Below, in pieces: positions 2,798 to 58,740 of a stretch of 64,000 nucleotides of DNA. The notes under the pieces were generated by a model. The model did no database searches. It worked only from the letters and a program-made list of their open reading frames with translations, and was not told where the DNA came from. Position numbers and translations under genes: made by a program. This DNA is from Somniosus microcephalus (Eukaryota), in contig CM126203.1 in the NCBI GenBank assembly GCA_052327205.1, forward strand, positions 341,620,001 to 341,684,000, read 5' to 3'. The first letter of the stretch is position 1. Each line of letters begins with the position of its first letter.

Positions 2798-4119
2798 TGG
2801 CTGGCCTTAAGAAACTTTGGGCTTGCATTTTTCTCTATTTTAATCATTGCTGTTATGCCTTTTAGTGTTCCTAGTCCCTCCTGGAACACTTATTTTGCGT
2901 CAGTTAACATTTTTGACAGTCGTCCAGGTGTGACGTCATCATCCTTTTTGGCCTCAACCTTCAGTGCCTGTATGGAATGCCAATCTAATTGTATCTTCCG
3001 GATCAATTCACGTCCTAGCAGTGGTGGTCCTCCATCTGGCAATACATATATAACCATCTTAGGTATTTCCTGGCCTTTATATATCACTTTCACCCTTATT
3101 TTTCCTTTGGGGTAGACTTTTTGCCCCGTATACGTCTTCAAGACAATCTCTGTAGCTTTCAAGGGTATATGTGAAAATAGCCGCTTGTAGTCCCTTTGAT
3201 TTATGACTGTTAGGGCTGATCCTGTGTCCTATTCCATTTTCACTTGGACTCCGTCTATCTTGAGTGTAACCCAGATAGCCTGGTGATCCTCCATTTCGGT
3301 TACCTTATGTAGTTTCAGACAACCCAGCTCCTTGCTTCCGGAGTCTGTGTCAATTTTCTGTTCGTCTGAACCACTGTCCATCACCTGGTGTACCTTTTTG
3401 TACTTCTCCTGTGGAGATTTCTTACTGTTGGTTTTCTTCCCAGACCTGCAAACTCTTGCTATGTGTCCTGCTTTCCCACACTGTCTGCACACTTGGTCCT
3501 TGAACCAACAATCTTTCTGGTCATGTGTTGTTCTGCCGCAGCGATAGCACTTCCCTGTTCCATAGGACATTTCATTGGTGCCATATTTTTGCGGTCTCCG
3601 TTGTATCTCTGCAGCGCCCCTTGCGGCTGCTTCGTGTGATACTGCCATACTGAAAGCTTTGTCCAGCATAAGATCCTTTTCTGATAGAAGCCATTTCTGG
3701 GTTCCTTAACTTTGTAGCCCACACACAAACTTGTTCCTTAACATATCTGCTAGTCCCGCTCCAAACTGGCAGTGTTTTGATAGCTTGCGCAGTTCCGTTA
3801 GGTACTCAGCATTGCTTTTGTCTTTGTGTTGGTTCCTTTTATGGAACTTAAATCGTTCTGCTATCAGCAGCGGTGTGGGGTTTAAGTGGCCCTGTAGGAT
3901 TTCTACTATGCTTTCGAAATTCTTGTTCACCGGCTTCTCTGGGGTTATTAGATTTCGCAGTAACCCATAAGTTTTTGCACCCATGGGATTTAACAAAACC
4001 AGTGCTTTATTAGCATCTGGCACTTCATTCGCCCTGCAGTACACCTCAATGCGTTCCACATATGTCGCCCAATCTTCGACTTCATTGTCGAACGTAGAGA
4101 TACTGCCACTCTTCGGCAT
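2798..4119 (-). pseudogene. gag: Gypsy A gag-protease, disrupted
   Basis: ORFs 3706-4143, 3229-3669 and 2890-3162 share one frame and are separated by stops; 1-nt frameshift near 2805. Knuckles CYRCGRTTHDQKDC and CRQCGKAGHIARVC; protease site ME*DTGS. Confidence 0.9.
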
Positions 4120-6363: not shown

Positions 6364-6593
6364 TGTGATGAAATAACTGTGTTCTGATATTTGTACTTGT
6401 ACTTGTAATGTCTGGAATGTTCCACCGGGGGAAATCACTAATGCTCCTCCCTGGCCCCGCCCCTCTTCTGGTATGTTCTACCAAGGGCTCGGTCGATGAT
6501 GAACTCTGTTAACTCTGCCATGATTCTTACTTAATAAAAGCCTTCAGTCTTAAACTTTAACTTCACGGATTCGGGCAGTTATTTGGCACATCA
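6364..6593 (+). repeat. 5' LTR of Gypsy B (230 bp)
   Basis: TGTGATG..CACATCA; AATAAA at 6533-6538. Confidence 0.97.
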
Positions 6594-6620
6594 ATTTTAT
6601 TAAGTAACAACTTTTGGAAG

Positions 6621-9600
6621 ATGGATCGATTTTTGAAACCAGAGCGTCTGGATATCGATCCGCATTCGGCAGACGCGTCGAAGAAATTTACGCATTGGCT
6701 ACGATGTTTTGAACACTTCATCGCATCGTTCGATTCGCCGGTTAACAAGTTGGGTCTTCTAACCAACTTGGTAAGTCATCAAACTTACTCTATAATTGAA
6801 GATATTACTACATATGAAGAGGCCCTCGCAGCTCTTAAAGCCCAGTACCTTAAGTCGGTTAACGAAGTATACGCCAGGTATCTCCTGTCTACTCGCAGGC
6901 AGTTACCCGAGGAATCTCTGGACGATTTCCTGCAGGTCCTTAAGGCTTTGGCTAAGGGTTGCAACTACAAGGCTGTCTCTGCCATAGTGTATCAGGAAGA
7001 AGCCATCCGCGATTCTTTCGTATCTGGCCTCCGATCTAATTATATTAGACAGAGACTCCTCGAGAACGACTCGTTAGTTTTAAAAACGGTCGTCGCTGCT
7101 GCTCGATCGTTAGATGTAGCCCAGAAGAATTCAGAAGTGTATGCATCAGCCCATGCATCTCTCTCAGCCTCGTGTGTTCCGAGTATGGAGGCATCCATAA
7201 CACCAATGGAGCCCCCACTTAATCCTATTGTTGCGGCTGTGCCCCATGGGTCTAAGTGTTATTTTTGTGGCCAATCTAAACACCCCAGGCAAAGTTGCCC
7301 AGCCAGAGAGGCTACCTGTTTTAAATGTAAGAAACGGGGACATTTTAGTAAAGTGTGTAAGGGTAATCCTGTACCCGAGGTCTTCTCTGCTGCCGCCTAT
7401 CGTTTTACTTTAGCCTCGGCTACGGTTGACCAGACCATACCGTGTTCCTTGTCAAAATCTATGATGGACATCAAGATTAATGGTCGTCCTACTGGGTGTT
7501 TGATAGACTGTGGCAGTACTGAAAGTTTTATACACCCTAACCTTGTTAACTCCTGTTCATTGAAGGTGTATCCTACTCGAAGTGAAATTGTGATGGCGTC
7601 CAAATCCTTTACTTCGAAGGTAACTGGATATTGTAAAGTCACATATACTCCGTATCCTTAATGGTCAAAGGACTTTAAACTCCTCATATTACCTCAGTTG
7701 TGTGTGAACTTAATATTAGGCTTGGACTTCCAGTGTCAGCATGAGAGCGTTACCCTTAAGTATGGTGGATCTCAGCCTCCACTCACAGTCTGCGGCCTTT
7801 CTACTTTAAACGTAAGTCCGCCTTCTTTGTTTGCGAACCTTGCTCCTAATTGTAGACCTATAGCGACTAAGAGTCGACGGTATAGTTCAGAAGATAAAAC
7901 ATTTATAAAAGAGGAAGTGGAAAGGCTTCAACGGGAGGGAATCATCGAACACAGTGGTAGCCCGTGGCGTGCCCAGGTGGTGGTGGTTAAAACTAATGAG
8001 AAGAAAAGACTTGTGGTCGATTATAGCCAGACTATAAACTTGTATACCCAATTAGACGCCTATCCTTTGCCTCGTATTTCTGAGATGGTGAACCAGATAA
8101 CTCAGTACCGCGTGTTCTCCACCATTGATTTAAAGTCTGCCTACCATCAACTCCCCATCAAAATAGAAGACCGACCTTATACGGCCTTCGAAGCTAATGG
8201 GCGCCTGTACCAATTCCTTCGGGTGCCCTTTGGAGTGACGAATGGGGTATCCGTCTTCCAACGGGAGATGGATCGTATGGTGGATGAATACGTGTTGGAA
8301 GCAACATTCCTGTACCTGGACAATGTTACCATCTGTGGGCGTGACCAACGGGAGCATGATCAAAATCTCGCGAAGTTCCTAGAGACTGCAAAGAGGTTAA
8401 ACCTGACCTACAACGAAAACAAGTGTACCTTCAATACTACACGTTTGTGTATCCTTGGTTGCGTTGTGGAGAATGGGGTAATTGGGCCAGATCCTGAAAG
8501 ATTACGCTCACTTAAGGAATTACCTTTACCTCACACTGTAAAAGCTTTAAGAAGGTGTCTGGGATTCTTCTCGTACTATGCCCAGTGGGTGGCTAGCTAC
8601 TCAGATAAAGTCCGACCTCTTAGTAAGTCGACGTCTTTTCCGCTATCGGCGGAAGCTCAGGAGGCTTTCCTTAATATCAAACGGGACATTAAGAAGGCAG
8701 TGGTATGTGCTGTGGATGAGAAGATCCCTTTTCAAGTGGAAAGTGATGCATCTGATTTTGCGTTGGCAGCAACTCTTAACCAAGCTGGTAGACCAGTAGC
8801 TTTCTTCTCTCGTACATTGCAAGGACCAGAAGTTCGACATTCTTCAGTGGAAAAGGAGGCACAGGCGATCATCGAAGCAGTCAGGTATTGGAGACATTAT
8901 CTCGCTGGCCAACGTTTTACGCTCATTACTGACCAGCGATCCGTGGCCTTTATGTTCAACACTAAGCAGAGAGGCAAGATCAAAAATGATAAGATTTTAA
9001 GATGGCGAATAGAACTGTCAACATATGACTATAATATTCAGTACAGGCCTGGAGTATTTAATGAGCCATCGGATGCTTTGTCACGAGGAGTATGTGCTAG
9101 TCTAGGTGCAGATAAGCTTCAAAGTCTCCATGACGCACTCTGCCACCCTGGGGTTACCAGAATGAACCACTTCATTAAGTCCCACAATCTACCCTACTCT
9201 ATTGAGGAGGTCCGGACAATGACCAGAACCTGTCATGTTTGTGCTGAATGCAAACCCCGCTTCTATAAGCCGTCCGAGCCAGCTCATCTTATTAAAGCAA
9301 CTCGACCATTTGAGCGTTTGAGTCTCGATTTTAAAGGTCCCCTTCCATCGAGCGACCGTAATGTCTATTTTCTTAATATTATAGACGAGTACTCTCGGTT
9401 CCCTTTTGTTATCCCCTGTCCGGATGTGACTAGTGCTGTTGTAATTAAATGCCTCTGCCAACTGTTTTCCTTGTTCGGCATGCCTAACTATATACATAGT
9501 GATGGGGTTCTTCCTTTATGAGCGAAGAATTACGACAGTTTTTGCTATCGAAGGGGATTGCAACGAGTAGAACTACCAGCTATAACCCTCATGGTAATGG

Positions 9601-10177
9601 GCAGGTCGAGAAAGAAAATGCAACAGTGTGGAAGGCTATCGTACTGTCTCTGAAGTCACGAGGCCTGCCGACCTCTCGCTGGCAGGATGTCCTGCCAGAT
9701 GTGCTGCATTCCATAAGGTCTCTTTTGTGTACAGCGACGAATGCCACCCCTCATGAAAGGATGTTTAGTTTTCCTAGAAAAGCTACTAATGGAGTATCGT
9801 TACCCACATGGTTGGCGACCACGGGCCCTGTGTTGTTGCGCAGACATGTGAGAGGCCACAAGACTGATCCACTGGTGGAGGAAGTACAACTCCTCCATGC
9901 TAATCCCCAGTATGCGTATATTCAATATTCGGATGGGCGAGAGGATACGGTCTCTATTAAAGATCTTGCACCTGCTGGAGCTCGAAAAGAGTTCGACTCT
10001 GAGAGTAGAGTTTTCAATCATGGTATTGGGCCTTCAGAGACACAAACCCTCAGTGTGGAAAATACTGATGATTCTGGGAATTCGAATGAACCGGAGTTAG
10101 TACTCCGGGAGGAGCCTCAGCAAGAGTTACCTCATTCCCAGAGGATTATCAGACCTCCTGACAGACTGAATCTATAG
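6621..10177 (+). pseudogene. gag-pol: Gypsy B gag-pol with lesions near 7650 and 9503
   Basis: Two CCHC knuckles, protease LIDCGS, RT YLDN, RNase H ESDASD, integrase SLDFKGP..HSD..NGQVE. Stop at 7659-7661; 1-nt deletion in D(R)GSSF. Confidence 0.93.
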
Positions 10178-10188
10178 CAGGGGGTGAA

Positions 10189-10417
10189 TGTGATGAAATA
10201 ACTGTGTTCTGATATTTGTACTTGTACTTGTAATGTCTGGAATGTTCCACCGGGGGAATCACTAATGCTCCTCCCTGGCCCCGCCCCTCTTCTGGTATGT
10301 TCTACCAAGGGCTCGGTCGATGATGAACTCTGTTAACTCTGCCATGATTCTTACTTAATAAAAGCCTTCAGTCTTAAACTTTAACTTCACGGATTCGGGC
10401 AGTTATTTGGCACATCA
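10189..10417 (+). repeat. 3' LTR of Gypsy B (229 bp)
   Basis: Direct repeat of 6364-6593. Confidence 0.97.
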
Positions 10418-31164: not shown

Positions 31165-34100
31165 TGTTGTGTATTTTGAATGTGTATTTTGAATGTGTAT
31201 TAGAATTGTCCCACATGGGATACCGTAGTGGTGATTTGCAATGCACTATGGGAAATGTAGTGCATTGAGTGAAGAAGCACATTGTAAATAAAATGGCCGT
31301 TAACTAAACTCTCCACCCCGGAGTCCTTCTTAATTGTTATATAGGTAAGGGTATAAAACCCCTTGAGACACAACAAAACTGGCGACGAGGACGACGGACT
31401 TGCGCATCACTTTGCACTGGAATCGGCGATGTTTAAAGTAAGAAGTTCCTGTCTTTTCTTAATGGCGCGCCCGCAGTTTCGTGCTGATGCAATCGCCTCG
31501 TAAAGGTGGCGGTTCGTGTGTTACACAAATAAGAAGGGGGAGAGTAACAATACAGTGAAACGAAGTGGAGGAAAAGGACTGTAAAAAAAAAAGTGAATGC
31601 GGCGTCAGTCGAAGAGGCGGGGCTAGCGGCAGTGTTGACAAAGCATGCGGCTGTCTTTGACAGAGAATTGGGGAGTATGAAGGGGATTACGGTCAAACTC
31701 AAGGTGAAGCCTGAAAGCCAGCCATGATTCCTGAAGGCCAGGAACGTTCCCTACGCCCTCAGACCAAAGGTGGAGGTTGACCTGGAGCGTCTGGTCAAGA
31801 TAGGGGTCCTGGTGCCGGTTTCGCACAGTGAGTGGGCCACGCCCATGGTACCAGTGATGAAGAGTGATGGCACGGTTCGCTTATGTGGAGATTTTAAAGT
31901 AACAGTGAATCCTGTGCTCTCAGCTGAACAGTACCCCCTCCCCATCATTGAAGATCTTTTCGCGGGTCTAGCAGGCGGTCAGAAGTTTAGCAAGATTGAT
32001 CTATGCCAAGCCTACTTGCAGATGCATGTAGAAGAGGACTCACAGAAGTACCTCACCATCACCACCCACAAGGGCCTCTACAGGTACTGCCGCCTACCCT
32101 TTGGTATAACGTCAGCACCAGCATTGTTTCAGCGGGCTATGGACCAGATCTTAAGCGGCATTCCAGGGGTACAATGTTATCTCGATGATATCCTTGTCAC
32201 AGGAAAGGACAACAACGAGCATCTGCAGAACCTGACGAAGACACTGGGACGACTTGAAGAATATGGCTTACGCGTTCGCAAGGACAAATGCGAATTTTTC
32301 AAGCCATCAGTGGAGGCCATGTCATCGACGCGGACAGCCTACACACAGCACCGTCGAAAGTGAAAGCCATTGCCGATGCTCCTGCAACTACAAATGTCGG
32401 CCAGCTGCGGTCATTCTTAGGTCTCCTAAACTATTACGGAAAGTTTATTCCACAGCTGGCATCACTGTTGAAGCCATTACATGAGTTGCTGTGTCAGGGC
32501 AAGGCCTGGGCGTGGACGAAGGAGTGCGAAGCTGCATTCAAGAAAGCCAAAGCAGCTTTGACTGACCCCAGAGTGTTGACGCACTTTGACCCGTCGTTGC
32601 AGATTCAGCTGGCCTGTGACGCGTCGCCTTATGGCGTCGGCGCGGTCGTGTCCCACATCTTTCCCTCAGGCGAAGAGAAGCCGATTGCATTCGCGTCAAG
32701 GTCCCTGAGCAAGGCGGAGGTGAAATACCCGCAGATCGAAAAAGAGGCTTTGGGCATCATCTTTGGAATCAAAAAGTTCCATCACTACTTGTTCAGAAGG
32801 AAATTCACCTTGCTGACGGATCATCGTCCTCTGACATCGATCTTTGGTCCACACACAGGAATACCCTCCCTGGCAGCGTGCAGGATGCAGCGCTGGGCGC
32901 TGATGTTAAGCGCTCACAATTACAACATCAAATACCGGAGGTCAGCAGCACATGGCAATGCGGACGGATTGTCAAGACTTCTGCTGCCTGTGCCCTCTGA
33001 AGGCTGTGAGCAGAAGATTTTCTACTTTGACATGGTGAGCAATGCCCCTGTCACGGCCCGGCAGGTCAAGAAAGAGACCAGAGTGGACCCTACGCTATCC
33101 AAGGTGCTGGATCGGGTGATGTGAGGAGACGGATCACGGGTGTCAGATGCACCACCTGAGCTCCTACCTTACCTGTCAAGAGGGAAGGAGTTGTCTGTCT
33201 TGTCAGGATGCCTCCTTTGGGACATGCGAGTGATCATACCACCAAAGCTGCGGAAACATGTCCTCAACGAGCTGCACTCAGGACATTGTGGTATTGTCCG
33301 GATGAAGGAGCTGGCACGAAGCTACTTCTGGTGGCCCGGTCTGGATCATGAAATTGAAGTTGAAGCGAAATCATGCCCATCATGCAAGACAACCAGGGAT
33401 ACGCCAAGAGCAGCGCCACTGCATCCATGGGAATGGCCGGCGACACCGTGGCAACGGATCCATCTGGACTTCGCGGGACCAGTGGAAGGAGCGATGTTCC
33501 TGGTCGCGGTGGACTCCCATTCCAAATGGCCGGAGGTTGCAATAATGTCCACTACCACTACGGAGAAAACCATCGAGACTCTGAGAGAGATGTTCGGGCG
33601 ATTTGGTCTGCCGGAGCATATCGTAACCGACAATGGAACACAGTTCACATCCCAGGAGATGGAAGAGTTCCTCAAGAGCAATGGAATCCAGCACACGTTC
33701 TCCGCGCCTTGTCATCCATCCACGAATGGATTGGCGGAGAGATTTGTCAGAACGCTGAAACGCGCGTTGAAAGCGGCAAGAAGTGATGCTCCTCTAAAGC
33801 AGCGCCTGAATGCTTTCTTGCTGAAATACCGAAACACGCCTCATGCTACGACTGGAGCATCTCCTGCTTCCCTACTCATGGGAAGGCAGCTACGGGCACG
33901 CCTTGACCTGCTGAGGCCAACGTCCACAGAAGCAGTGGTGCACGCCAATCAGCAGGATCAAGTCAGCAGACGAGCTCAGAGGTCCAAAGAACGACACTTT
34001 GTGGTGGGCGGCAAAGTCCTCACGCGTAACTACACCACCCCGGAGCGGTGGGTCCCGGCTACGGTCATTCAAAAGACGGGCCCCGTTTCATACTGAGTCC

Positions 34101-34710
34101 GCACCGGAGACAACCGAACATGGAGATGGCATGTAGACCAGTTACTGCCAAGACAGTCGCCACAGGTAACCCAAGAAACAGAGGATCAAGGACCTGCTGG
34201 GGGCTCCCGCAGGGACTGGTCGTCCGACCCTGAGACGGTGGCACCATCCACTCTTGTGCCATCGAGGGAGGAAGCCACGCCTGCAGGGTCACGGGAGAGC
34301 CAGCCAGAGCCTGTTCCTGAGACTAGGCGTTACCCCCAAAGAGAAAGGCAGCCTCCAGAGCGCCTTAGTTACAGTTAGTGCTAACCTGTGTGCATGGGCA
34401 GAATAACCCCAGGGTTAGCGGAATGTAAAGGCAGTCTACCCTCTCTTCCAAAGTTATAGTCATTTTCAGTTATTCTGTTTTGTGGACATTCTATTTTAAG
34501 GGGGAGGAAATATGTTGTGTATTTTGAATGTGTATTAGAATTGTCCCACATGGGATACCGTAGTTGTAATTTGCAATGCACTATGGGAAATGTAGTGCAT
34601 TGAGTGAAGAAGCACATTGTAAATAAAATGGCCATTAACTAAACTCTCCACCCCAGAGTCCTTCTTAATTGTTATATAGGTAAGGGTATAAAACCCCTTG
34701 AGACACAACA
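31165..34710 (+). mobile_element. Ty3/Gypsy LTR retrotransposon C (Mag-like), gag-protease deleted
   Basis: LTRs 31165-31375 and 34513-34710 (4 substitutions plus a 13-bp duplication). TSD GATAG. PBS TGGCGACGAGGA at 31380. PPT AAGGGGGAGGAAA. Confidence 0.96.
31596..34378 (+). pseudogene. pol: Gypsy C pol (RT-RNase H-integrase) with several stops and a frameshift
   Basis: WATPMVPV, YLDD, LACDAS, IHLDFAGP, TDNG, NGLAERFV. TGA near 31725, 33122 and 34094; frameshift near 32315. Confidence 0.93.
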
Positions 34711-37548: not shown

Positions 37549-37903
37549 CAGGAAACTCTCTTTTAACCGGCACCCAAATAACCGGAAATCTCTCTTAACT
37601 GGCAAAATTCAGGAGTAGGTTCAGGTAAGTTTTACTATATATTTGTGGCTGTGTAACCGGGGTTCCTGGATCTGTGGCTGTGTAACTGGGGTTCCTGTAC
37701 CTGTGGCCGTGCAACAGGGACTCCTGGATCTGTGGCCGTGTAACCGGGACTCCTGCACAAGTGCCGTGTAACCGGGGCTCCTGCACCTGTGGCCGTGTAC
37801 GGGGCTCTCATACCTTTTAACTATACCTCTCTGTAATCCGGACTTTTTGATCAACTGGCACCACGCCGGTCCCATCGGTGCCGGATAAAAAAAGAGTTTC
37901 CTG
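37549..37903. mobile_element. Tc1/mariner (Tigger-like) MITE containing a 29-bp minisatellite
   Basis: TA-flanked; TIR CAGGAAACTCT..TTT(A/T)A.CCGGCA; about 5.5 copies of TGTGGC(T/C)GTGTAACCGGGG.TCCTG..C at 37644-37807. Confidence 0.8.
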
Positions 37904-38314
37904 TACTCATTTAGCTGCCTTTCACTGTACCCTCTCCAGTGCCAAGATGCACACACTCTAGTATAGTGACTTTTATTATACGCAGTACACCAGGTGGAGC
38001 TGGACCAGCTCTTTACACGGGTTCATTATCACTTCCTGGGATTATGCTTTATTCCTTTGGCTATAGGGTCACGTTTGCTTTCTTTACTGCTCAATACTTC
38101 AGTTAGTTATCCGTGAGTTGTCCTAATCAGTCTTTTGCATCTTTCAGACTATTATTGTTCTTTTCATATTCTCCCTGCTTATTCCCCTTCCCAGTCTCCT
38201 CACGTTGCATTGATCAACATTAAATGACATCTACCACGTGTCAGCCCAAGTTGCTAATCTTTCCAAATCCGTCTTTCTTTGTTATTCAGCTCCCCGCCCC
38301 ATCCAGTTTGGTAT

Positions 38315-41300
38315 TGTGATGAAATATTCATCATCATCACTGCCTGTGACTGAGATCAGTTTCAGTGCCATTTCCCTTCCCCCAGACCTCATTGTATTGT
38401 GTACTGGAATGTGCTGTATTGTATACTGGAATGTGCTGGAATGTGCTGTGTGTAGGGCTCCGCCCATACCTGGCCCCGTTTGTAGGCTGGCTCAGTCTGG
38501 CCTCAGCCTCCAGAAGGAAGACATCTCTCTCGCTTACGTGTTATGTTCTAAGTTAATAAAAGCCTTGTTTTGTTCTGCTAACTTCGAGACTCGGAATTAT
38601 TGAGGCACATCAATTTTATTAACTTATTTTTCAACACTATGGATCAACTCCTGAAACCCGAACGTTTGGATTTGGATCAACATGCTCCGGACGCATCAGC
38701 ACGCTTCGGACACTGGTTTGAGTGTATGGAATTCTTCCTGGACAATTCCGCAGCTGTCAAAGACGCTACGGACGCTGCGAGGATGAGACTCGGAATTCTG
38801 CGGAATTGGGTAAGCCACCGGGTTTACCCCCTCATCCAAGACGCCGAGACGTACCTGGCCGCCTGCGACATCTTAAAGGCGCATTACCAGCAGCCTACGA
38901 ATGAGGTGTATGCTAGGCACCTGCTCGCTACCCGCGCACAGCGACCTGGGGAATCGGTGGAGGAGTTCCTAAGCACCCTGAAAATGCTTGGCAAAGACTG
39001 CAAGTGCCGAGATGTAAAAGCCGCAGTGTACACTGACGAGCTTGTTCGCGATGCCTTCATCACAGGGCTCAGCTCCACTTACATCCGGCAAAGACTGCTG
39101 GAAAAAACGGGGTTGGACCTGAAACAGGCTGCGGACACCGCGCGATCCCTGGATGTGGCCCAGAGAAACTCGGACGCCTACTCTTCAGCCCGCGCCATCC
39201 ACGCCGCCACGTGTGCACCGAGGGCGCCGCCATCTTGGAAGGCATCTTCCCCGCCTGACAGCCCGACACTGGCTGGGCCCCGCTCTCCCCCCAGAAGCCC
39301 TACGACAGCCGCGACGTGTCAGGGACCCAACTGCTACTTCTGCGGGCAGCCAAAGCACACCAGAAACCTGTGCCCGGCGAAAGGCACCACCTGCTTTAAG
39401 TGCGGTAATTAGGGGCACTTCGGGAAGGTGTGCAGAGGGAACTCCGCCGGAAAACCAACCGCCGGAAAACCCGCCACCGCCGCGTGTGCGCCGTGGGAGC
39501 GGCCATCTTGGACGCCATCTTGCCCGACCTCGTGGGGTCCGCCATCTTGTGAGCAGACAGCGTGGACGCCATCTTGTATCGATCAGGGCCCTACAGTGGC
39601 ATCGGTCACAGTGGACCAGACCAGGCCGCACCCGCTATCCAGATCAATGGTGGACATCGAGGTAAACGGGTGCCGGGTTAAATGCTTAATTGACAGTGGA
39701 AGCACGGAGAGCTTTATCCACCCAGAACTGGCACAACAACTCTCCCTAAAGGTGGTCCCTACTCAGGGTACCATCTCTATGGCTGACAAAACCCAGACAT
39801 CGACCATTCTGGGTTACTGCACGGTACAATTGTGCGTTAACGGAACTGTATATGATAATTTTAAAGTATTAATCATGAAGAACCTATGTGCGAGCGTGAT
39901 CTTGGGCCTGGATTTCCAGTGCAACCACCAAAGCATCACGCTCAAGTACGGTGGGTCCCAGCCGCCCCTCACAGTGTGCGGTCTGGCTACCCTGAAGGTA
40001 AAGCCGCCTTCGCTATTCGCGAACCTTACCCCTAACTGCCGGCCAATAGCGACCAAAAGCAGGAGGTACAGCTGGGAGGACAGGCGGTTTATTGCGACCG
40101 AGGTAGACAGGCTCCTGAAAGAGCGCATTATTGAACGCAGCAACAGCCCGTGGCGTGCCCAAGTGGTAGTGGTAAGGGGTAGCGAGAAGAGACGGATGGT
40201 GATCGACTATAGTCAAATGATCAACAGGTACACCCTACTAGACGCCTACCCACTACCCCGCATATCAGAAATGGTGAACCAAATCGCCCAATACCGGGTG
40301 TTCTCCACCATCGACCTCAAGTCAGCGTACCACCAGCTCCCTATCAGACCAGAGGACCGCCCGTACACCGCCTTCGAGGCGAACGGACGCCTCTACCAAT
40401 TCCTCAGAGTCCCCTTTGGGGTGACGAATGGGGTCTCGGTCTTCCAGAGGGAGATGGACCTCATGGTCGATGACCACCACTTGCAGGCAACCTTCCCCTA
40501 CCTCGACAACGTCACCATCTGCGGCCACAATCAGCAGGATCACGACTCGAACCTCGAGAGGTTCCTGGAAACCGCACAAAAACTCAACCTCACCTACAAC
40601 GAGGACAAGTGCGTTTACAACACCACGCGCCTCTGCATACTAGGCAGCGTGGTGGAGAATGGGGAAATCGGACCAGACCCCGACCGATTGCGCCCCCTAC
40701 GGGAGCTGCCCCTGCCCAACACTCCCAAAGCCCCGAAAAGGTGCCTGGGGTTATTTTCTTATTATTCCCAATGGGTCCCCAACTACTCCGACAAAGCCCG
40801 CCCCCTCTTGAAAGCATCCTCTTTCCCGCTCTCTGCTGAGGCCCACGCCGCCTTCAAAAGCATTAAGCAGGATATTGAGCGGGCCACGCTACAGGCAGTG
40901 GACGAGAACACTCCATTTCAAGTGGAAAGTGATGCGTCTGACTTTGCCTTGGCGGCCACCCTCAACCAGGCGGGGCGGCCCGTAGCTTTCTTCTCGAGGA
41001 CCCTCCAAGGGCCCGAGATCAGACACTCCTCCGTGGAAAAGGAGGCCCAAGCCATCGTGGAGGCAGTGCGCCACTGGCGCCACTACCTAGCCGGCAAACG
41101 CTTCACCCTACTTACTGACCAGCGGTCGGTAGCGTTTATGTTCAATAATAAACAGAGGGGGAAGATTAAAAATGATAAGATTCTTAGGTGGCGGATCGAG
41201 CTCTCCACCTTCGAGTACGACATCATTTACCGGCCAGGGGCCCTTAACGAATCCCCTGACGCCCTCTCACGAGGGATGTGTGCCAGCGCCACCGGGGATC

Positions 41301-42720
41301 GGCTACAGACCCTCCACAACAACCTCTGCCACCCAGGGGTCACGCGGCTGTTCCACTTCATAAAGTCCCGTAACTTACCCTACTTGATTGAGGAAGTTCG
41401 GTCCCTGACCAGGAACTGCCGCACTTGCGCTGAGTGCAAGCCTCAGTTCTACCGCCCAGATAGAGCCCACTTAATCAAAGCTACACGGCCCTTTGAGCGG
41501 CTCAGCTTAGATTTCAAGGGCCCCCTCCCGTCCGTCGACCGCAATGTTTACTTCCTGAACATTGTGGACGAATACTCCCGGTTCCCATTCGCCTTCCCCT
41601 GCCCAGACATGACCAGCGCCACGGTCATTAAATGCCTCAACAGCCTGTTCTGCCTGTTCAGTATGCCGAGCTACATCCATACGGATAGGGGGGCGTCCTT
41701 CATGAGTGAAGAGCTACGCCAGTACATGCTGTCCAGGGGGATCGCCACGAGCCGTACCACCAGCTACAACCCCCGGGGTAACGGCCAAGTGGAACGAGAG
41801 AACGGGACAGTATGGAAAGCAGTCACTCTAGCTCTAAGGACCAAGGGCCTCCCTATCTCCCGCTGGCAGGAAGTCCTCTCGGATGTGCTCCATTCGATAC
41901 GGTCGCTATTGTGTACGGCCACTAATACCACGCCCCATGAACGAATGTTTGTCTTCCCCCGGAAATCCACCTCAGGCGTATCCATGCCGTCATGGCTCTC
42001 CACCCCAGGTCCGGTACTCGTGCGAAGGCATGTGAGGGGCCACAAGATGGACCCTCTCGTGGAGCCAGTACACCTACTCCACGCCAACCCCCAATACGCA
42101 TATGTCCGGCACGCCGACGGAAGGGAGGACACCGTGTCCATAAAAGACGTCGCCCCAGCCGGCATCGACAACAACCACGGCAATAGCGGCAACGACGATC
42201 ACAGCAACTCTTACCCACCCATTACTTTTTCATCACCCCCGGAAGAACACCGACCAACGGCACCCCCACCAACTACCCTTTCAACAACCCTGGCGGCACC
42301 CCCGGCAGAGACCCAGGAGGCTACCGGGGACACCCAGCCGACACCCGCGGCACCGCAACAGCCACGTCGGTCGCAGAGGACTATCAAACCCCCGAACAGA
42401 CTAAATCTATAGAAGGGGTGAATGTGATGAAATATTCATCATCATCACTGCCTGTGACTGAGATCGGTTTCAGTGCCATTTCCCTTCCCCCAGACCTCAT
42501 TGTATTGTGTACTGGAATGTGCTGTATTGTATACTGGAATGTGCTGGAATGTGCTGTGTGTAGGGCTCCGCCCATACCTGGCCCCGTTTGTAGGCTGGCT
42601 CAGTCTGGCCTCAGCCTCCAGAAGGAAGACATCTCTCTCGCTTACGTGTTACGTTCTAAGTTAACAAAAGCCTTGTTTTGTTCTGCTAACTTCGAGACTC
42701 GGAATTATTGAGGCACATCA
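38315..42720 (+). mobile_element. Ty3/Gypsy LTR retrotransposon D (same lineage as B; no tRNA PBS)
   Basis: 298-bp LTRs 38315-38612 and 42423-42720 with 3 substitutions. TSD GGTAT. PPT AGAAGGGGTGAA. Confidence 0.98.
38639..42412 (+). pseudogene. gag-pol: Gypsy D single-frame gag-pol with one nonsense codon (39410-39412)
   Basis: ORFs 38600-39412 and 39428-42412 are in frame; the stop lies inside the knuckle CFKCGN*GHFGKVC. LIDSGS, YLDN, ESDASD and integrase DDE motifs are intact. Confidence 0.95.
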
Positions 42721-43108
42721 GGTATTACTAACAAACAGCTTTGTTTCCGTTGCCACTTCCCAATCATTTATATATATTGGGCTGAATTTTTACCTTAACT
42801 TTGGATTGGGCGCAGGGGGGCTGTGCAGCGGGTCGCTATCCTGAGCGTTTCATCAGCGCGCTCTGCAGTCTCTTTTTAACTTAAGTACTGCAATTGAGTT
42901 AGTCATGCGGGTTTCCTGGCCAATTAACTGGAGCGGGTATGATGACGTCACAGATGACTCGACTTCAGCTCACCTATTTAAAGGGGCAGTGGACAGGTGA
43001 GAGTTGAAGGTTGTTGGAGGCGGTCCAGAGGTTGGTCTGAGAGTTAGCTGTTGCTGTGAGATGGACCAATTAGTTTGACTGTGAAGGTTTAACCATTTCT
43101 AAGCAAAG

Positions 43109-45053: not shown

Positions 45054-48000
45054 TGTTGAGATACCGCGGCAAACGTGGGAGTCGAGACCAGAGCTATTGA
45101 AAACACAACTACTTTATTCCAACCACATGACAAACAGGAACGAGAAAAGCCCGCGCGTCCACTTAAATACTTCCCAGACAGGAAGTGCTCCCGGCAGCCT
45201 GTCCCTGCGGGAAACAAGTTGCTGGAGGAAAGGGCCCCCGGCTGGGGGCTTCTGCTTAGACTGTCTGTGCCGCCGTGAGCGGATTATGTCCAGTGGTGGC
45301 GTGTCGCCACAGAGCTCCCCCCAGAATCCGCTTAGGAGGAGTGGACGAGTCGTGACGGTGGTCTAATGGTTCTGCCGCAGCGGCTCTGAGTGGTCACCGG
45401 TCTGGTTGGTTGGGTCGGGCGGTTCGCCACCGGCTGTGCTGGCTTGCCGGGGGGACGGCCTCTAGTTGGAGGCTGGGCCACGGGGACCTGTTCCCCTGGT
45501 TCTGTGTGCGCTGGTTTGAGCCGGTCGATGGAGACTGTCTCGACCCTGTCGCCGAGTCGCAGCTTGAAGACCTTGTCCCCGGTTTGTAGTACCTCATACG
45601 GACCGTCGTACGGGGGTCGCAGGGGCCCGCGGTGCGCGTCGTGTCGCACGAAGACGAAGCGCGCCTGCTGTAAATTTGGCGGGACGTGAGGTGCGAGTTC
45701 GCCGTGTCGGTTGACCGGAAGTGGGGCGAACTGCTGAGCGGAAGAGAAAGAGTCGAGCTGCTGCTGTTCGGCCGACCAAGGCTTGGTAGGCTCCGGAAGG
45801 AATTCGCCTGGGACGCGCAGCGGTTGTCCGTAGACTAACTCCGCTGCCGAGGACTGGAGGTCTTCCTTGACCGCGGTGCGTAGGCCGAGTAGCACCCACG
45901 GTAGGCGGTCAGTCCAGGTACTGTCCTGCAGGCCGGCGCGGAGTGAGGCCTTGCGTGACCTGTGGAAGCGTTCACAAAGTCCGTTGGCCTGCGGGTGGTA
46001 CGCCGTGGTGCGGTGGAGCATCACCCCGAGGTTGCGTGCTGTGGCCGTCCAGAGTTCGGAGGTGAACTGGGCGCCTCTGTCGGAGGTTATGTCGGCCGGT
46101 ACACCGAACCTCGCAACCCAGGTGTTAACGAACGCCCTGGCGATGTGGGCTGTGGTGGTGGAGGTCAGCGGCACTGCCTCAGGCCAGCGTGTGTAGCGGT
46201 CGACCATCGTGAGGAGATAAGTTTGGCCTTGCGATGGCGGCAGGGGACCGACGATGTCGACGTGTACGTGGTCGAAGCGGCGGCTGGGTACCTCGAAGTC
46301 TCCCAGGGGTGCTTTGGTGTGCAGCTGTACCTTAGCCCGTTGGCAGGCGAGGCAGGAGGTGGCCCAAGTCCGAACATCTCTGCTGAGGCCGCGCCAGACG
46401 AAGCGCTTGAAGAGGAGTTTGACGGATGCGCGGGAACCCGGGTGAGAGAGCCCGTGGAGCGCATCGAAGACGCGGCGGCGCCAGGTCTCAGGGACGACCG
46501 GCCTGGGTTGGCCGAGTGAGACGTCGCACGTGACTGCCGTGGCTTCGGGCCCGTGCGCAACCTTGGCTAGGCGTAGCCCTGGCAGGCTGGTAGCCGCCGA
46601 GAGGAGGTCTGGGTCCGTGAGCTGGGCCGCTGCTAGTTGTGCGTAGTCGACCGCGAGGTGATTCGCACAGACGGCGGGACGGGAAAGGCAGTCGGCGACC
46701 ACGTTGTCTCTACCGGAGACGTGCTGAATGTTTTTAGTAAACTCGGAGACGGCCGCGAGCTGGCGTTGCTGCCTAGCGGACCAGGGTTTGGTGTGCTTGG
46801 CCATCGCGTATGTGAGTGGCTTGTGGTCCACATACGCAGTGAAGGGGCGGCCTTCCAGGAGGAACCTGAAATGGCGGACCGACAGGTGGAGTGCGAGAAG
46901 CTCGCGGTCGAAAGTGGAGTATTTGACCTCGGGGGGCGCAGTTGGCGGCTGTAGAAGGCAAGTGGCTGCCACGCGCCATTGACCCACTGCTCGAACACGG
47001 CCCCGACCGCGTGGTCGGAGGCGTCGGTGGTGAGCGCGACCCGGGCATCGGCCCTCGGGTGCGCGAGCAGAGTGGCGTCGGCGAGCGCGTTTTTGGTGGC
47101 GTCGAAGGCGGCTGCTGTGTCAGTGGTCCAGGCTACGTCCATCTTGCCGGATTTTCCTCGGAGGGAGTCGTATAGGGGCTTCATGAGGGCTGCGGCTCTG
47201 GGGATGAACCTGTTGTAGAAGTTCACCATCCCGAGGAACTCCTGGAGGCCCTTGATGGTTGTGGGGCGGGGGAATTGCTGGACGGCCTGCACCTTGTTGG
47301 GCAGGGGGACGGCCCCAGCAGGGGTGATGTGGTGACCGAGAAAATCGATCTCGGTTAGGCCGAATTGGCACTTCGCCGGGCTGAGGATGAGCCCGTGTTG
47401 GGCTAGGCGCCCGAACAGGATGCGAAGGTGTTCGAGGTGTTCCTGTTTGGAGGAGCTGGCCACGAGAATGTCGTCTAGATAGACGAATAGGAAGTTCAGG
47501 TCCCGGAGGACTGAGTCCATAAGGCGCTGGAAAGCCTGTGCTGCATTCTTGAGGCCGAAGGGCATCCTCAGGAACTCGAACAGGCCGAATGGGGTGATGA
47601 CGGCCGTTTTGGGGATGTCCGCGGGGTGTACGCGGACTTGGTGGTAACCGCGCACCAGGTCGACTTTGGAAAAGACGGTTCGTCCGGCCAGTCGGGCCGA
47701 GAAGTCCTGGATGTGTGGCACCGGGTATCGATCGGGGGTGGTGGCGTCGTTGAGGCGGCGGTAGTCCCCGCAAGGGCGCCAGCCTCCGCCGGGCTTGGGG
47801 GCGATGTGGAGGGGCGAGGCCCAAGGGCTGCTGGAGCGGCGGATGATGCCGAGTTGTTCCATGTTGGTGAACTCGGCCCGCGCGATTTCCAGCTTGGCCG
47901 GGTTGAGTCTGCGGGCGTGGGCAGAAACTGGGGGGCCGGTGGTGGGGATATAGTGTTCCACACCGTGCTTGGCAGCTTTGGCCGAAAAGGTCGGGTTAGT

Positions 48001-49409
48001 GAGGGCAGGAAACTCAGCTAGGAGTGCCGAGTAGTCGTCCGTGGCTCTGGCGAGGCAGTAGGTCGTCAGGCCAGCCGAACGGGCCGGGGTAAAGGCGCCG
48101 GGGATGGGGGCCATAGTGTTGATGTCAACGAGGCAGTGCCTCGGAATGTCGACAAGGAGGCCGTGGGCACGTAGGAAGTCGGCGCCGATGAGTGGGCAGA
48201 GGACCTTGGCTGTGAGGAACTCCCAGCGGTAGCGGCGGCCCGCGAGGTCGAGCGTGACCATGCGGGTGCCATATGTGCGGATTTCAGAGCCGTTGGCTGC
48301 AGCCAGTGTGATACCCCGTGTGCCGTGTTGGATCTCGAGGGCGGAGGCGGGGGTGATGCTGTGCTGGGCCCCTGTGTCGCACAGAAATCGGCGGTTGGTT
48401 CTGTCGTCAGTGACGTACAGTATGGGCTCCTTCTGCCCCGCGGCCATCGCGGGGGCCGGTGCGGGGGGGGGGGGGGGTTTGAAGGAACACGGTGGCGTGC
48501 AGCGTTGAGCCCTAGCGCCAAAACGGGTGTGGTAGTAGCAGTGACCCGGAGTGGTAGGGCGGTCGGGCCTAGCGGCCCGGGAAGACCGCGTGGTCGTTGC
48601 CGTGAGGTCGGGCGCGACGTCGCGAGCGGCCTGTGCAGAGAGCAGCCGGTCGGCCTTTTCGGCTATATCATTCAGGTCCGTGGAGTCAGACTCCACAATG
48701 AGCGGGCGGATGCTGGCGGGGAGCTGCCGAATGAAAAGCGTGCGAAAAAGGGCGCCGGGATTTTTGTCGTCTGAGAGGGACAGCATGTGGGAAAGCAGGT
48801 CTGATGGTGAAGCGTCACCAAGGCCGGGGAGGTCCAGGAGTTGGCAGTGGCGCTGGTAAGAGGACGTTTGAAATTTTTTAAGTAGCGCAGCCTTCAGATG
48901 TTCGTACTTGCCCTCCGTTGGTGGATTCTGCAGCGCTGCCCAAACCTTGGGGACTGTAGCGTAGGTGAGCGAGGCGACGAGGTAGTCGTACTTCGTGGCG
49001 TCGACTGTAATGCCTTTCAGCCGGAATCGGGACTCAGCTTGAACGAACCAGGCTTCGGCGAGGTTCTCCCAAAAGTCTGGTAATTTAACCGTGACTGCGT
49101 TTGTATCCGCCATGCTAGCTTAGGATTCGTCCTGAGCGTCGGGGTCACCAGTGTTGAGATACCGCGGCAAACGTGGGAGTCGAGACCAGAGCTATTGAAA
49201 ACACAACTACTTTATTCCAACCACATGACAAACAGGAACTAGAAAAGCCCGCGCATCCACTTAAATACTTCCCAGACAGGAAGTGCTCCCGGCAGCCTGT
49301 CCCTGTGGGAAACAAGTTGCTGGAGGAAAGGGCCCCCGGCTGGGGGCTTCTGCTTAGACTGTCTGTGCCGCCGTGAGCGGATTATGTCCAGTGGTGGCGT
49401 GTCGCCACA
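45054..49409 (-). mobile_element. Ty3/Gypsy LTR retrotransposon E, CsRn1 clade
   Basis: 258-bp LTRs 45054-45311 and 49152-49409 with 3 substitutions. 4-bp TSD AGAC. PBS TGGTGACCCCGACG (tRNA-Trp) at 49137-49150. CHCC gag motif CYYH..C...C. PPT at ~45312-45323. Confidence 0.97.
45332..49113 (-). CDS. gag-pol: CsRn1 gag-pol, intact except for a 1-nt frameshift at the G6 run 46931-46936
   Basis: LCDTGA protease, WASPLH..RPCGDYR, YLDD, TTDASD, HVDIVGP..TSDRG..ANGLCERFHR. Adding one C restores RQLRPPEVKYSTFDRELL. Confidence 0.93.
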
Positions 49410-55063: not shown

Positions 55064-57875
55064 TGAAACATAGAAGATAGGAGCAGGAGTAGGCCATTCG
55101 GCCCCTCGAGCCTGCACCGCCATTCAATGTGATCATGGCTGATCATCCAAATTCAGTACCCCGTCCCTGCTTTCTCCCCATACCCCTTGATCCCTTTAGC
55201 CTTAAGAAATATATCCAACTCCTTCTTGAATATATTTCATGAATTGGCCTCTACTGCCTTCTGTGGTAGAGAATTCCACAGGTTCACCACTCTCTGGGTG
55301 AAGAAATTCCCCCTCATTTCTGTCCTAAATGGCATACCCTTTATCCTTAGACTGTGACCCCTGGTTCTGGACTCCCCGACCATCAGGAACATCCTTCCTG
55401 CATCTAGCCTGTCCAGTCCTGTCAGAATTTTATAAGTTTCAATGAGATCCCCTCTCATTCTTCTAAACTCCAGCGAGTACAAACCCAATCGACCCCATCT
55501 CTCCTCATACGTCATTCCTGCCATCCCAGGTATCAGCCTGGTGAATCTTCGCTGAACACCTTCCATGGCAAGAACATCCTTCCTCAGATAAGGTGACCAA
55601 AACTGCACACAATACTCAAGATGTGGTCTCACCAAGGCCCTGTACAACTGCAGCAAGACATCCCTGTTCCTGTACTCAAAGCCTCTCGCTACGAAGGCCA
55701 ACATACCATTTGCCTTCTTAACCACCTGCTGCACCTGCATGCTTACCTTCAGCGACTGGTGCACAAGGACACCCAGGTCTCGTTGCACTTCCCCTTCGCC
55801 CAATCTATTGCCATTCAGATAATAATCTGCCTTCCTGTTTTTGCAACCAAAGTCGATAACCGCACATTTATCCATGTTATATTGCATCTGCCATGCTTCT
55901 GCCCAATCACCCAACCTGTCCAAATCATCCTGGAGTTTCTCGGCATCCTCCTCACAGCACACACGCCCACCCAGCTTTGTGTCGTCTGCAAATTTGGAGA
56001 TATTACATCTAGTTCCCTCGTCTAGATCATTAATATATATTGTGAATAGCTAGGGTCCAAGGACCGATCCCTGCGGTACCCCACTAGTCACTGCCTGCCA
56101 CTTGGAAAAGGACCCATTTATTCCAACTCTTTGCTTTCTGTCTGCCAACCAGTTTTCTATCCAATTCAATACCTTGCCCCCAATCCCATGTGCCTTAACT
56201 TTACACGCTAACCTCTTATGCGGGACCTTATTGAAAGCCTTCTGAACGTCCAAATATACCACATCCACTGGTTCTCCCTTATCTATTTTACCAGTTACAT
56301 CCTCAAAAAATTGCAGTAGCTTAGTCAAGCACGATTTACCCTTTGTAAATCCATGTTGACTTTGTCCGATCCTGTCACTGTTTTCCAAGTGCTCAGCTAT
56401 TACATCCTTTATAATGGACTCTAGCATTTTCCCCACTACCAATGTTAGGCTTACCGGTCTGTAATTCCCCGTTTTCTCCCTACCACCGTTTTTGAATAGT
56501 GGGGTAACATTAGCTACCTTCCAATCCATGGGTACTGTTCCAGATTCCATCGAATGTTGGAAGATGATCAGCAATGCATCTACTATTTCTAGGGCCACTT
56601 CCTTAAGTACCCTAGGATGTAGATTATTAGGCCCTGGGGATTTATGGGCCTTCAGTCCCATCAATTTCCTTAACACCATTTCCTTACAAATACGGATTTC
56701 TTTCAGTTCCTCCCCTTCATCAGACCCTATGTTCCCCGACATCTCTGGGAGGTTATTTGTGTCCTCCTTTGTGAAGACAGAACCAAAATATGTATTTAAT
56801 TGGACTGCCATTTCTTTGTTACCCATTATAAATTCCCCTGATTCTGACTACAAGGGACCTACATTTGACTTCACCAATCTTTTTCTCTTCACATATCTAT
56901 AAAAGCTTTTACAGTCAGTTTTTATGTTCCCTGAAAGCGTACTCTCATATTCTATTTTCCCCTTCTTAATTAATCCCTTTGTCCTCCTTTGTTGAATCCT
57001 AAACTGCTCCCAATCCTCAGGTTTACTGCTTTTTCTGGCCAATTTATATGTCCTCTCCTTGGATCTTATGCTATCCCTAATTTCCCTTATTATCCATGGT
57101 TGAGTCACCTTTTTTTGTTTTATTTTTATGCCAAACTGGAATGAACAATTTCTGTAGTTCATCCATGCAGTTTTTGAATGCTTGCCATTGCCTATCCACC
57201 GTCAACCCTTTGAGTGACATTCCCCAATCAATCCTACCCAACTCGTGCCACAGACCATCATAGTTTCCTTTATTTAAATTCAGGACCCTAGTCTGAGTCA
57301 ACTACTTCATTCTCCATCTTAATGAAGAATTCTATCATATTATGATCGCTCTGACCCAAGGGGCCTCGTACAACAAGATTGCTAATTAATTCTTTCTCAT
57401 TACATAATACCCAGTCTAAGATGGCCTGATCTCTGGTTGGTTCCTCGACATATTGGCCCAGGAAACCATCCCGTAAACACTCCAGGAATTCCTCCTCCAC
57501 AGTATTGTTACTAATTTGGTTAGCCCAATCTATATATAGATTAAAGTCACCCATGATGACTGCTGTGCCCTTATTGCACGCTTCTCTAATTTCCCTTTTA
57601 GTGCCATACCCAACCTCCGCCTTACTGTTTGGAGGTCTATATACCACTCCCACTAACGTTTTCTGCCCCTTGGTATTTCTCAGTTCTACCCATACAGATT
57701 CCACATCATCAGAGCTAATATCCTTCCTTACAATTGTGTTAATCCCTTCTTTAACCAGCAATGCTACCCCACCTCCCTTTCCTTTGTGCCTATCTTTCCT
57801 GAATATTGAATATCCCTGGATGTTGAGTTCCCAGCCTTGGCCACCCTGGAGCCATGTTTCCATAATCCCAAACAA
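55064..57875 (-). mobile_element. CR1 LINE with near-complete ORF2 (APE endonuclease + RT), several lesions
   Basis: ETW..GGGVAL..VYRPP..MGDFN..SDH; NYRPVSL, QHGF, PQGSVLGP, FADD; 3' tail. Confidence 0.95.
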
Positions 57876-58056
57876 ATCATGAACCTGCTTCCTTAATTGC
57901 TCCCCCGTTTCCTTCACGAGGGAGCTTTAGACAGAGGCTCGGCATCCCTTGCTACTGCAAGCACCAGGCTGCTTCCTCTGACACAGCAGCCATCCTGAGA
58001 CAAGGGTCACCTGAGGTCTATAAGGCTCCAGGGAACCATCTCAGCCTTCCACCATT

Positions 58057-58738
58057 CATAGAAACATAGAAGATAGGAGCAGGAGTAGGCCATTTGGCCC
58101 CTCGCACCTGCTCTGCCATTCAATGCGATCATGGCTGATCATCCAAATTCAGTACCCCGTCCCTGCTTTCTCCCCATACCCCTTGATCCCTTTAGCCTTA
58201 AGAAATATATCCAACTCCTTCTTGAATATATTTCATGAATTGGCCTCTACTGCCTTCTGTGGTAGAGAATTCCATAGGTTCACCACTCTCTGGGTGAAGA
58301 AATTCCTCCTCATTTCTGTCCGAAATGGCTTACCCCTTATCCTTAGACTGTGACCCCTGGTTCTGGATGCCCCCGCCATCGGGAACATCCTTCCTGCATC
58401 TAGTCTGTCCAGTCCTGTCAGAATTTTAAGTTTCAATGAGATCCCCTCTCATTCTTCTAAACTCCAGCGAGTATAAGCCAAATCGACCCAATCTCTCCTG
58501 ATACGTCATTCCTGCCATCCCAGGTATCAGCCTGGTGAATCTTCACTGAACTCCTTCCATGGCAAGAACATCCTTCCTCAGATAAGGCGACCAAAACTGC
58601 ACACAATACTCGGATGTGGTCTCACCAAGGCCCTGTACAACTGCAGCAAGACATCCTTGTTCCTGTACTCAAAGCCTCTCGCTACGAAGGCCAACATACC
58701 ATTTGCCTTCTTAACCGCCTGCTGCACCTGCATGCTTA
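58057..58738 (-). mobile_element. CR1 3' fragment, same subfamily as 55064-57875
   Basis: Near-identical to 55064-55748. Confidence 0.92.
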
Positions 58739-58740
58739 CC

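Follow-up and report, generated by a model that had tools for sequence, protein, structure and literature searches.

When LTR elements replicate, the primer is copied into the primer site as the plus strand is made. To our knowledge, self-priming of reverse transcription has been demonstrated only for the Tf1 chromoviruses of fission yeast. In the corresponding reports, the first 11 bases of Tf1 are described as pairing with the primer-binding site, with an RNase H cut between bases 11 and 12 (PMC7175516), the fold as a three-duplex "pretzel" (bioRxiv 2022.12.06.519325), and approximately half of the cDNA as still carrying, at the 3′ end, the site copied in single-stranded form (PMC11042837). 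Self-priming has further been described for Tf1/sushi and Tcn1, and predicted for plant TAR Copia elements (PMC6317226; PMC3601003), the prediction for this TAR lineage of plant Ty1/copia (Houba, Osr-1) being made from sequence (PMC6317226); with self-priming thus predicted outside yeast, recurrence of the mechanism has already been proposed. Other departures from tRNA-type sites include Skipper of dictyostelids, in which a pyrimidine-rich stretch replaces the TGG site and in whose LTR no complementary region was found (PMC5006619), and the bivalve TRIMs, with unexplained non-tRNA sites (PMC6934838). In the parts of the literature covered by targeted searches, a metazoan Gypsy survey (PMC13524379) among them, no self-priming clade of animal non-chromovirus Gypsy elements was found.

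Here, we present the analysis of a 64,000-nt stretch of the Somniosus microcephalus genome (hereafter the window), which contains a Gypsy element, D, whose features are gathered in Table 1. The 13 nt following its left LTR are likely (probability of about 0.7) the primer-binding site of a self-primed, Tf1-like reverse transcription. An arm within this LTR (38549-38561, TAAGTTAATAAAA) matches the reverse complement of the site at 38614-38626 at every base, as a sequence-only reading of the window had pointed out, and the 1-nt spacer and 26-nt leader (ATG at 38639) that it described for D were recovered as well, the spacer also in the sister element B, whose 230-bp LTR (6364-6593) has the same layout. 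The same reading had remarked that the bodies of the D and B LTRs (298 and 230 bp) could not be aligned by eye, and only the arm region and short stretches, mainly at the two ends, did align; the two arm/site positions that it saw changed on both strands with pairing kept are indeed so, both being transversions. The two LTRs of D (298 bp each) differ from each other at 3 positions, the arm copy of the 3′ LTR (42657-42669) has one private change, and the gag-pol frame is interrupted by one in-frame stop (39410-39412). A tandem array of ~29-nt units (37644-37816) lies 500 nt to the left of the element.

Table 1. Features of element D and position of its sister element B, in window coordinates.
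Feature	Position	Strand	Basis
Left target site duplication (TSD), GGTAT	38310..38314	+	sequence
D 5′ LTR, 298 bp, TG...CA	38315..38612	+	sequence
13-nt arm, putative self-primer and putative R start; AATAAA at 38555-38560	38549..38561	+	putative role
Second stem, 38562-38567 pairing with 38601-38606, stacked on the arm helix	38562..38606	+	predicted fold
Putative cleavage point	38561/38562	+	putative
1-nt spacer between LTR and site	38613	+	sequence
Candidate primer-binding site, without TGG, exact complement of the arm	38614..38626	+	sequence
Base 14 (directly after the site), variable between copies	38627	+	copy comparison
gag-pol, single frame: two CCHC arrays, protease, RT, RNase H, integrase; without chromodomain	38639..42412	+	domain search and translation
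Purine-rich tract, likely PPT, 5′ of the 3′ LTR	42411..42422	+	sequence
D 3′ LTR	42423..42720	+	sequence
Right TSD, GGTAT	42721..42725	+	sequence
Sister element B, same clade: arm 6527-6539, site 6595-6607, TSD ATTCT	6364..10417	+	sequence

The TG...CA LTRs, the TSD, the purine tract and the pol order (protease-RT-RNase H-integrase) are those of Ty3/Gypsy elements. No chromodomain (PF00385) was found in D, B or two relatives with a profile that does detect other elements of the same genome. Against the Ty3 RT, the RT-RNase H region scored 168 bits, compared with 279 for an own-genome chromovirus and 182 for another Gypsy of the window, and it is ~30% identical to the own-genome chromoviruses. 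In an unrooted 33-sequence tree, which held three chromoviruses, all from the own genome, and no named reference sequence (Mag and Cigr-1 included), and for which the pol at window 173-2806 was used as outgroup, the D clade was separated from the chromoviruses and from its nearest outside animal Gypsy matches by a long branch (0.74, SH-aLRT 100), FastTree and IQ-TREE being in agreement. By these sequence features, the D clade is Ty3/Gypsy and neither a chromovirus nor a member of Tf1/sushi.

Like Tf1 and Tf2 of Schizosaccharomyces pombe and Tf1/sushi in general, the D clade has no tRNA site and carries after its LTR a site that complements this LTR, and the predicted second stem beside the arm helix of D resembles one of the Tf1 flanking duplexes. 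However, it differs from Tf1/sushi by the lack of a chromodomain, a separate RT branch and two CCHC arrays, and from Tf1 by a match of 13 bp instead of 11, a loop of only 21-66 nt and an arm that usually holds a poly(A) hexamer. The TAR and Tcn1 elements belong to another superfamily or clade and to plant hosts, and Skipper carries a chromodomain, whereas the D clade consists of animal non-chromovirus Gypsy elements. Within the own genome, an 11-bp fold-back was present in two of the five chromoviruses read, the other three matching over 0-7 bp, which provides a useful positive control with a different geometry. These two chromodomain Gypsy elements, L208 and L210 (G000 C12:63.74-63.75 Mb and C5:280.30-280.31 Mb), display the classic Tf1/sushi layout, the site after the LTR matching a stretch 155-161 nt upstream.

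D also resembles Mag in its short length, its single frame and the two CCHC arrays of its Gag; such arrays are described for both Mag and Micropia/Mdg3 (PMC2577118) and are thus not diagnostic for Mag. The nearest outside gag matches include a 1313-aa Xiphophorus element. The D clade may already carry a published name, one candidate being Cigr-1, which is similar in size to D. It may also belong to a MolGy clade (PMC6238403). Saci2, considered when a name for the clade was sought, was dropped, as it uses tRNA sites (PMC12471100).

Exact pairing extends far beyond these two elements. A gag-start pattern gave at least 12,606 matches in the 6.4 Gb of the own genome, from which 86 distinct copies were chosen by gag and not by pairing (30 restricted to the D family, further sets of 30, 21 and 3, and B and D themselves). 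Two had no LTR junction, and 71 of the 84 scored copies paired perfectly, 11 had one mismatch and 2 were degraded. A distant sample of 93 loci from metagenome and genome contigs comprised 29 with a gag start, two of them too short and two without junction motif; among the 25 scored, 20 paired perfectly, 2 had one mismatch and 3 paired poorly. Since several distant copies share one assembly, the type, defined by its site sequence, is the fair counting unit. There are 32 distinct site sequences, 24 of which have a perfectly paired copy (10 own-genome, 14 distant), and when the site of one type was placed on the LTR of another, none of the 552 combinations matched perfectly. As these 24 sequences each fit their own LTR, a single fixed outside primer is ruled out, and exact pairing is a clade-wide trait. 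Site positions 1-3 are TTT in every type, while positions 4-13 each vary; judged by this start (internal tRNA matches may exist), 24 of 24 types do not begin with the TGG of a tRNA-type site, whereas the sites of window elements C and E do. No other primer site was found in leaders of 14-37 nt, that of D offering too little room for a further one, and no tRNA gene in the 64-kb window.

Protein relatives, known here from protein matches alone, were detected in Trichuris, Trichinella, Actinostola, Penaeus and Pycnogonum, the closest matches including sharks and rays, and no relative was found in the viral contigs scanned. Gypsy pol matches also occur in contigs filed under bacterial genomes or MAGs (L141-L153), some of them complete elements of the D/B clade, and most likely represent eukaryotic contamination. 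At G000 C1:22.69-22.86 Mb, seven copies of the same family (L158-L164) are clustered, some 3.8 kb apart, in a tandem-array-like arrangement; three of them (L160, L162 and L163), with a common G-U change in the site and less than 150 kb between them, were regarded as local duplicates.

A fold is predicted for the D RNA at its 5′ end: the 93 nt reach -18.4 kcal/mol (z -3.1), with the 13-bp helix stacked on a 6-bp helix, a 7-nt bulge and no helix beyond base 13, whereas the same stretch at the 3′ LTR gives no fold (z +0.6). In 23 of the 24 types, a second stem could form from the nucleotide that directly follows the arm. An Rfam search returned 0 matches.

By analogy with Tf1, transcription would start at the arm's first base, the RNA would fold at its 5′ end so that the arm pairs with the site, RNase H would cut directly 3′ of the arm (AAA^GCC), and the released 13-nt piece would prime minus-strand DNA across the LTR end. 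Plus-strand synthesis would then copy the primer into the site, so that arm and site would change together. In two RNA runs from a related organism, reads cross the arm on both strands with no visible start, and no poly(A) tails appear among the loose ends listed. Against the arm as transcription start, no TATA-like box is evident upstream and the arm begins with a pyrimidine; if R starts at the arm, only ~15-25 nt would be left for the first strand transfer, which also counts against it. Indirect support for the arm as the transcript 5′ end comes from the edge of the helix and from the base that follows it. Each of the 71 perfect helices of the own genome stops after 13 bp, with a chance of ~25% for pairing at base 14; however, 10 of the 20 perfect distant helices extend to 14-19 bp, so that the 13-bp edge is not universal. 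On a gag tree (106 copies, after exclusion of 8 of 114 as broken, distant or duplicate), base 14 changed 9 times and bases 15-17 never, and genome-wide, 320 variants were counted for base 14, compared with 3, 11 and 13 for bases 15, 16 and 17 (in slightly different pattern contexts), although this signal is inflated, most of the 320 being inherited and 30 such variants having been placed on the tree deliberately. Base 15 is also variable in some subfamilies. Among 100 base-14 variants listed, 77 were C, 23 A and none G. MMLV-type RT is described as adding first C when the RNA end is capped and A when it is uncapped (PMC6885630), and the variation at base 14 fits the addition of untemplated nucleotides where an RNA 5′ end has been copied; the C bias also corresponds to the commonest transition (T to C), which weakens this interpretation.

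Covariation between arm and site is pronounced across the family. In 11 own-genome types, picked as perfectly paired, helix 1 is Watson-Crick in 143 of 143 cells, with double changes at 6 of its 13 pairs and neither one-sided nor G-U changes, whereas helix 2 of the same types is 76% paired and uses G-U. From such double changes, the sequence-only reading had concluded that selection acts on the pairing rather than on the sequence. What holds of this conclusion is that the match is neither an AT-rich accident, given the shuffles reported below, nor the imprint of a single fixed outside primer, given the 24 site sequences; the double changes themselves are no proof of selection, and self-priming as the likely function was not named in that reading. 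When a self-primer is copied into its site, one mutation yields a "compensatory" pair, so perfect covariation between primer and site can arise by copying, and covariation tests there do not by themselves demonstrate selection.

The covariation data lean toward copying. Transversions outnumber transitions between types (794 vs 419, as pairwise and hence not independent counts). On the inner branches of the gag tree, a noisy tree with recombination on which rates were obtained by parsimony, pairs change at a rate similar to that of single sites (0.46 per site, vs 0.48 in the loop and 0.28 at third positions of gag), and arm and site change on the same branches. At site position 10, 47 variant copies stand against 5596 normal ones; among 30 variants read, 12 represent one young subfamily whose arm is changed to match (a double transversion), the other 18 being unpaired singles scattered over several backgrounds. 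Selection must still act, because no unpaired variant was seen spreading, and it probably removes unpaired lineages; the second, G-U-containing stem is better explained by selection. One copy with both LTR arms one G-U off the site (L221) was considered as a replication intermediate and set aside, as the change lies within a CpG.

A further record of the meeting of arm and site is provided by rearranged copies, in which the leader folds back into the element. The direct pattern gave 66 fold-back junctions against 5596 normal ones, i.e. ~1% of D-type 5′ junctions (some being local duplicates), and 153 junctions leave the leader after base 14, 9 of the 30 read running into antisense U3. Twenty fold-back copies were retrieved, 15 with both outer ends mapped, and 13 of these 15 are flanked by a perfect 5-bp TSD. 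In most cases, the inverted part reproduces the U3 of the same element almost exactly, 19 to 250 nt beyond the arm, and two copies are clean loop inversions. In L359 and L361, a terminal inverted U3 is joined directly to the TSD, so in these copies the rearrangement preceded integration. The fold-back copies show that arm and site meet during reverse transcription, and they fit either a snap-back of plus-strand DNA that ends in the site, or a primer that carries additional RNA from upstream. The normal primer is not revealed by them: template switching at any inverted repeat could yield similar products, and most of them could also form after insertion. Nonetheless, intermediates of reverse transcription are naturally recorded in these 66 copies and can be studied there even if no live element is at hand.

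Two observations on these copies deserve mention. At L362 (G000 C3:297,001,900-297,011,899), two complete elements of different subfamilies meet in head-to-head orientation, the junction falling exactly on the site/arm match and no TSD being shared, which recalls Tf1 insertion via the single-stranded site copy. In L358, L367, L369, L371 and L374, U3 copying stops ~46-54 nt beyond the arm (equivalent to window ~38495-38503), near a small inverted repeat in U3, which might reflect a pause site or an upstream start site.

The same copies bear on an unlikely variant of self-priming, in which the primer would have another source than the capped 5′ end: an arm in the 3′ R, or one in a partner RNA within the particle, would be trimmed after AAA and pair with the site. 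Copies of the L361 type read internal-U3-arm and then antisense LTR, as such a primer would predict, L362 joins two subfamilies at arm and site, and the presence of AATAAA or ATTAAA in the arm of 18 of the 24 types ties the arm to the 3′ end of the RNA. However, snap-back of plus-strand DNA yields the same fold-back structures, and the stop at 13 bp in all perfect own-genome copies, together with the variable base 14, is simpler with a natural RNA 5′ end.

The hexamer is also at the center of a quite improbable explanation, according to which the helix mainly hides the poly(A) signal of the left LTR (or gates translation) and is kept by selection on RNA structure, reverse transcription being primed otherwise. 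In each of the 10 own-genome types, the arm retains either AATAAA or ATTAAA, with no other change than from one of these hexamers to the other, and the fold forms only at the 5′ LTR. Yet 6 of the 14 distant types carry neither hexamer in the arm and pair perfectly, the short leaders show no other primer site, and a helix maintained by selection alone should tolerate G-U pairs and bulges, as helix 2 does. Pairing would hide the signal in the left LTR only, likely as a side benefit in the own genome, and the distant types without hexamer make masking a plausible lineage-specific extra rather than the core function in the clade.

Equally low, or slightly lower, is the standing of a third possibility, in which the match would be kept at the DNA level, through repeated snap-back or conversion during reverse transcription, while another element-derived small RNA acts as primer. 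Fold-back products, at ~1% of junctions, do indicate that the two segments meet during copying; however, those observed run past base 13 and wreck the element instead of leaving a clean 13-nt match. Finally, arm and site are both AT-rich, but a chance complement around AATAAA is virtually discounted by dinucleotide shuffles of the D LTR, none of which (0/5000) gave a match above 10 bp, by the six further pairs beyond the AATAAAA/TTTTATT core (p ~3.5e-4), by the own-LTR matches of only 3 and 5 bp in the two tRNA-type elements of the window, and by the 24 distinct sites that each fit their own LTR.

Self-priming of the Tf1 type thus being the preferred reading for D, a wider and more tentative one, to which we give somewhat less than an even chance, would extend it to an animal-wide Gypsy clade with tRNA-free priming independent of Tf1/sushi. 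Its primer would be a 13-base piece bearing the poly(A) signal, possibly taken from the RNA 3′ end, with priming tied to 3′-end processing; the site would be rewritten at each round, the pair would drift at the speed of a single site, and the fold-back intermediates would be fossilised in the genome. Self-priming in a second Gypsy clade, unrelated to Tf1, would mean that tRNA-free priming has more than one origin in Gypsy elements, or is older than assumed. Self-primed elements would also escape annotation of primer-binding sites based on tRNAs and would evade control by tRNA fragments.

The window hosts several other elements. At its edge (173-2806, minus strand) lies a Gypsy pol frame that belongs to another clade and is open over 877 aa. 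In a shorter Gypsy (31181-34710, plus strand), the LTRs measure 195 bp, a TGG-type site follows the LTR at a distance of 4 nt, and pol is broken, its frames starting at most ~350 nt from the LTR, with gag and protease seemingly missing. Another Gypsy (45054-49409, minus strand) combines 258-bp LTRs, a DUF7041 domain at the start of gag, a TGG-type site and a pol spread over two frames. Lastly, at 55065-58740, two 683-nt stretches, 95% identical and 3 kb apart, flank fragments of the endonuclease and RT of a LINE-like element on the minus strand.
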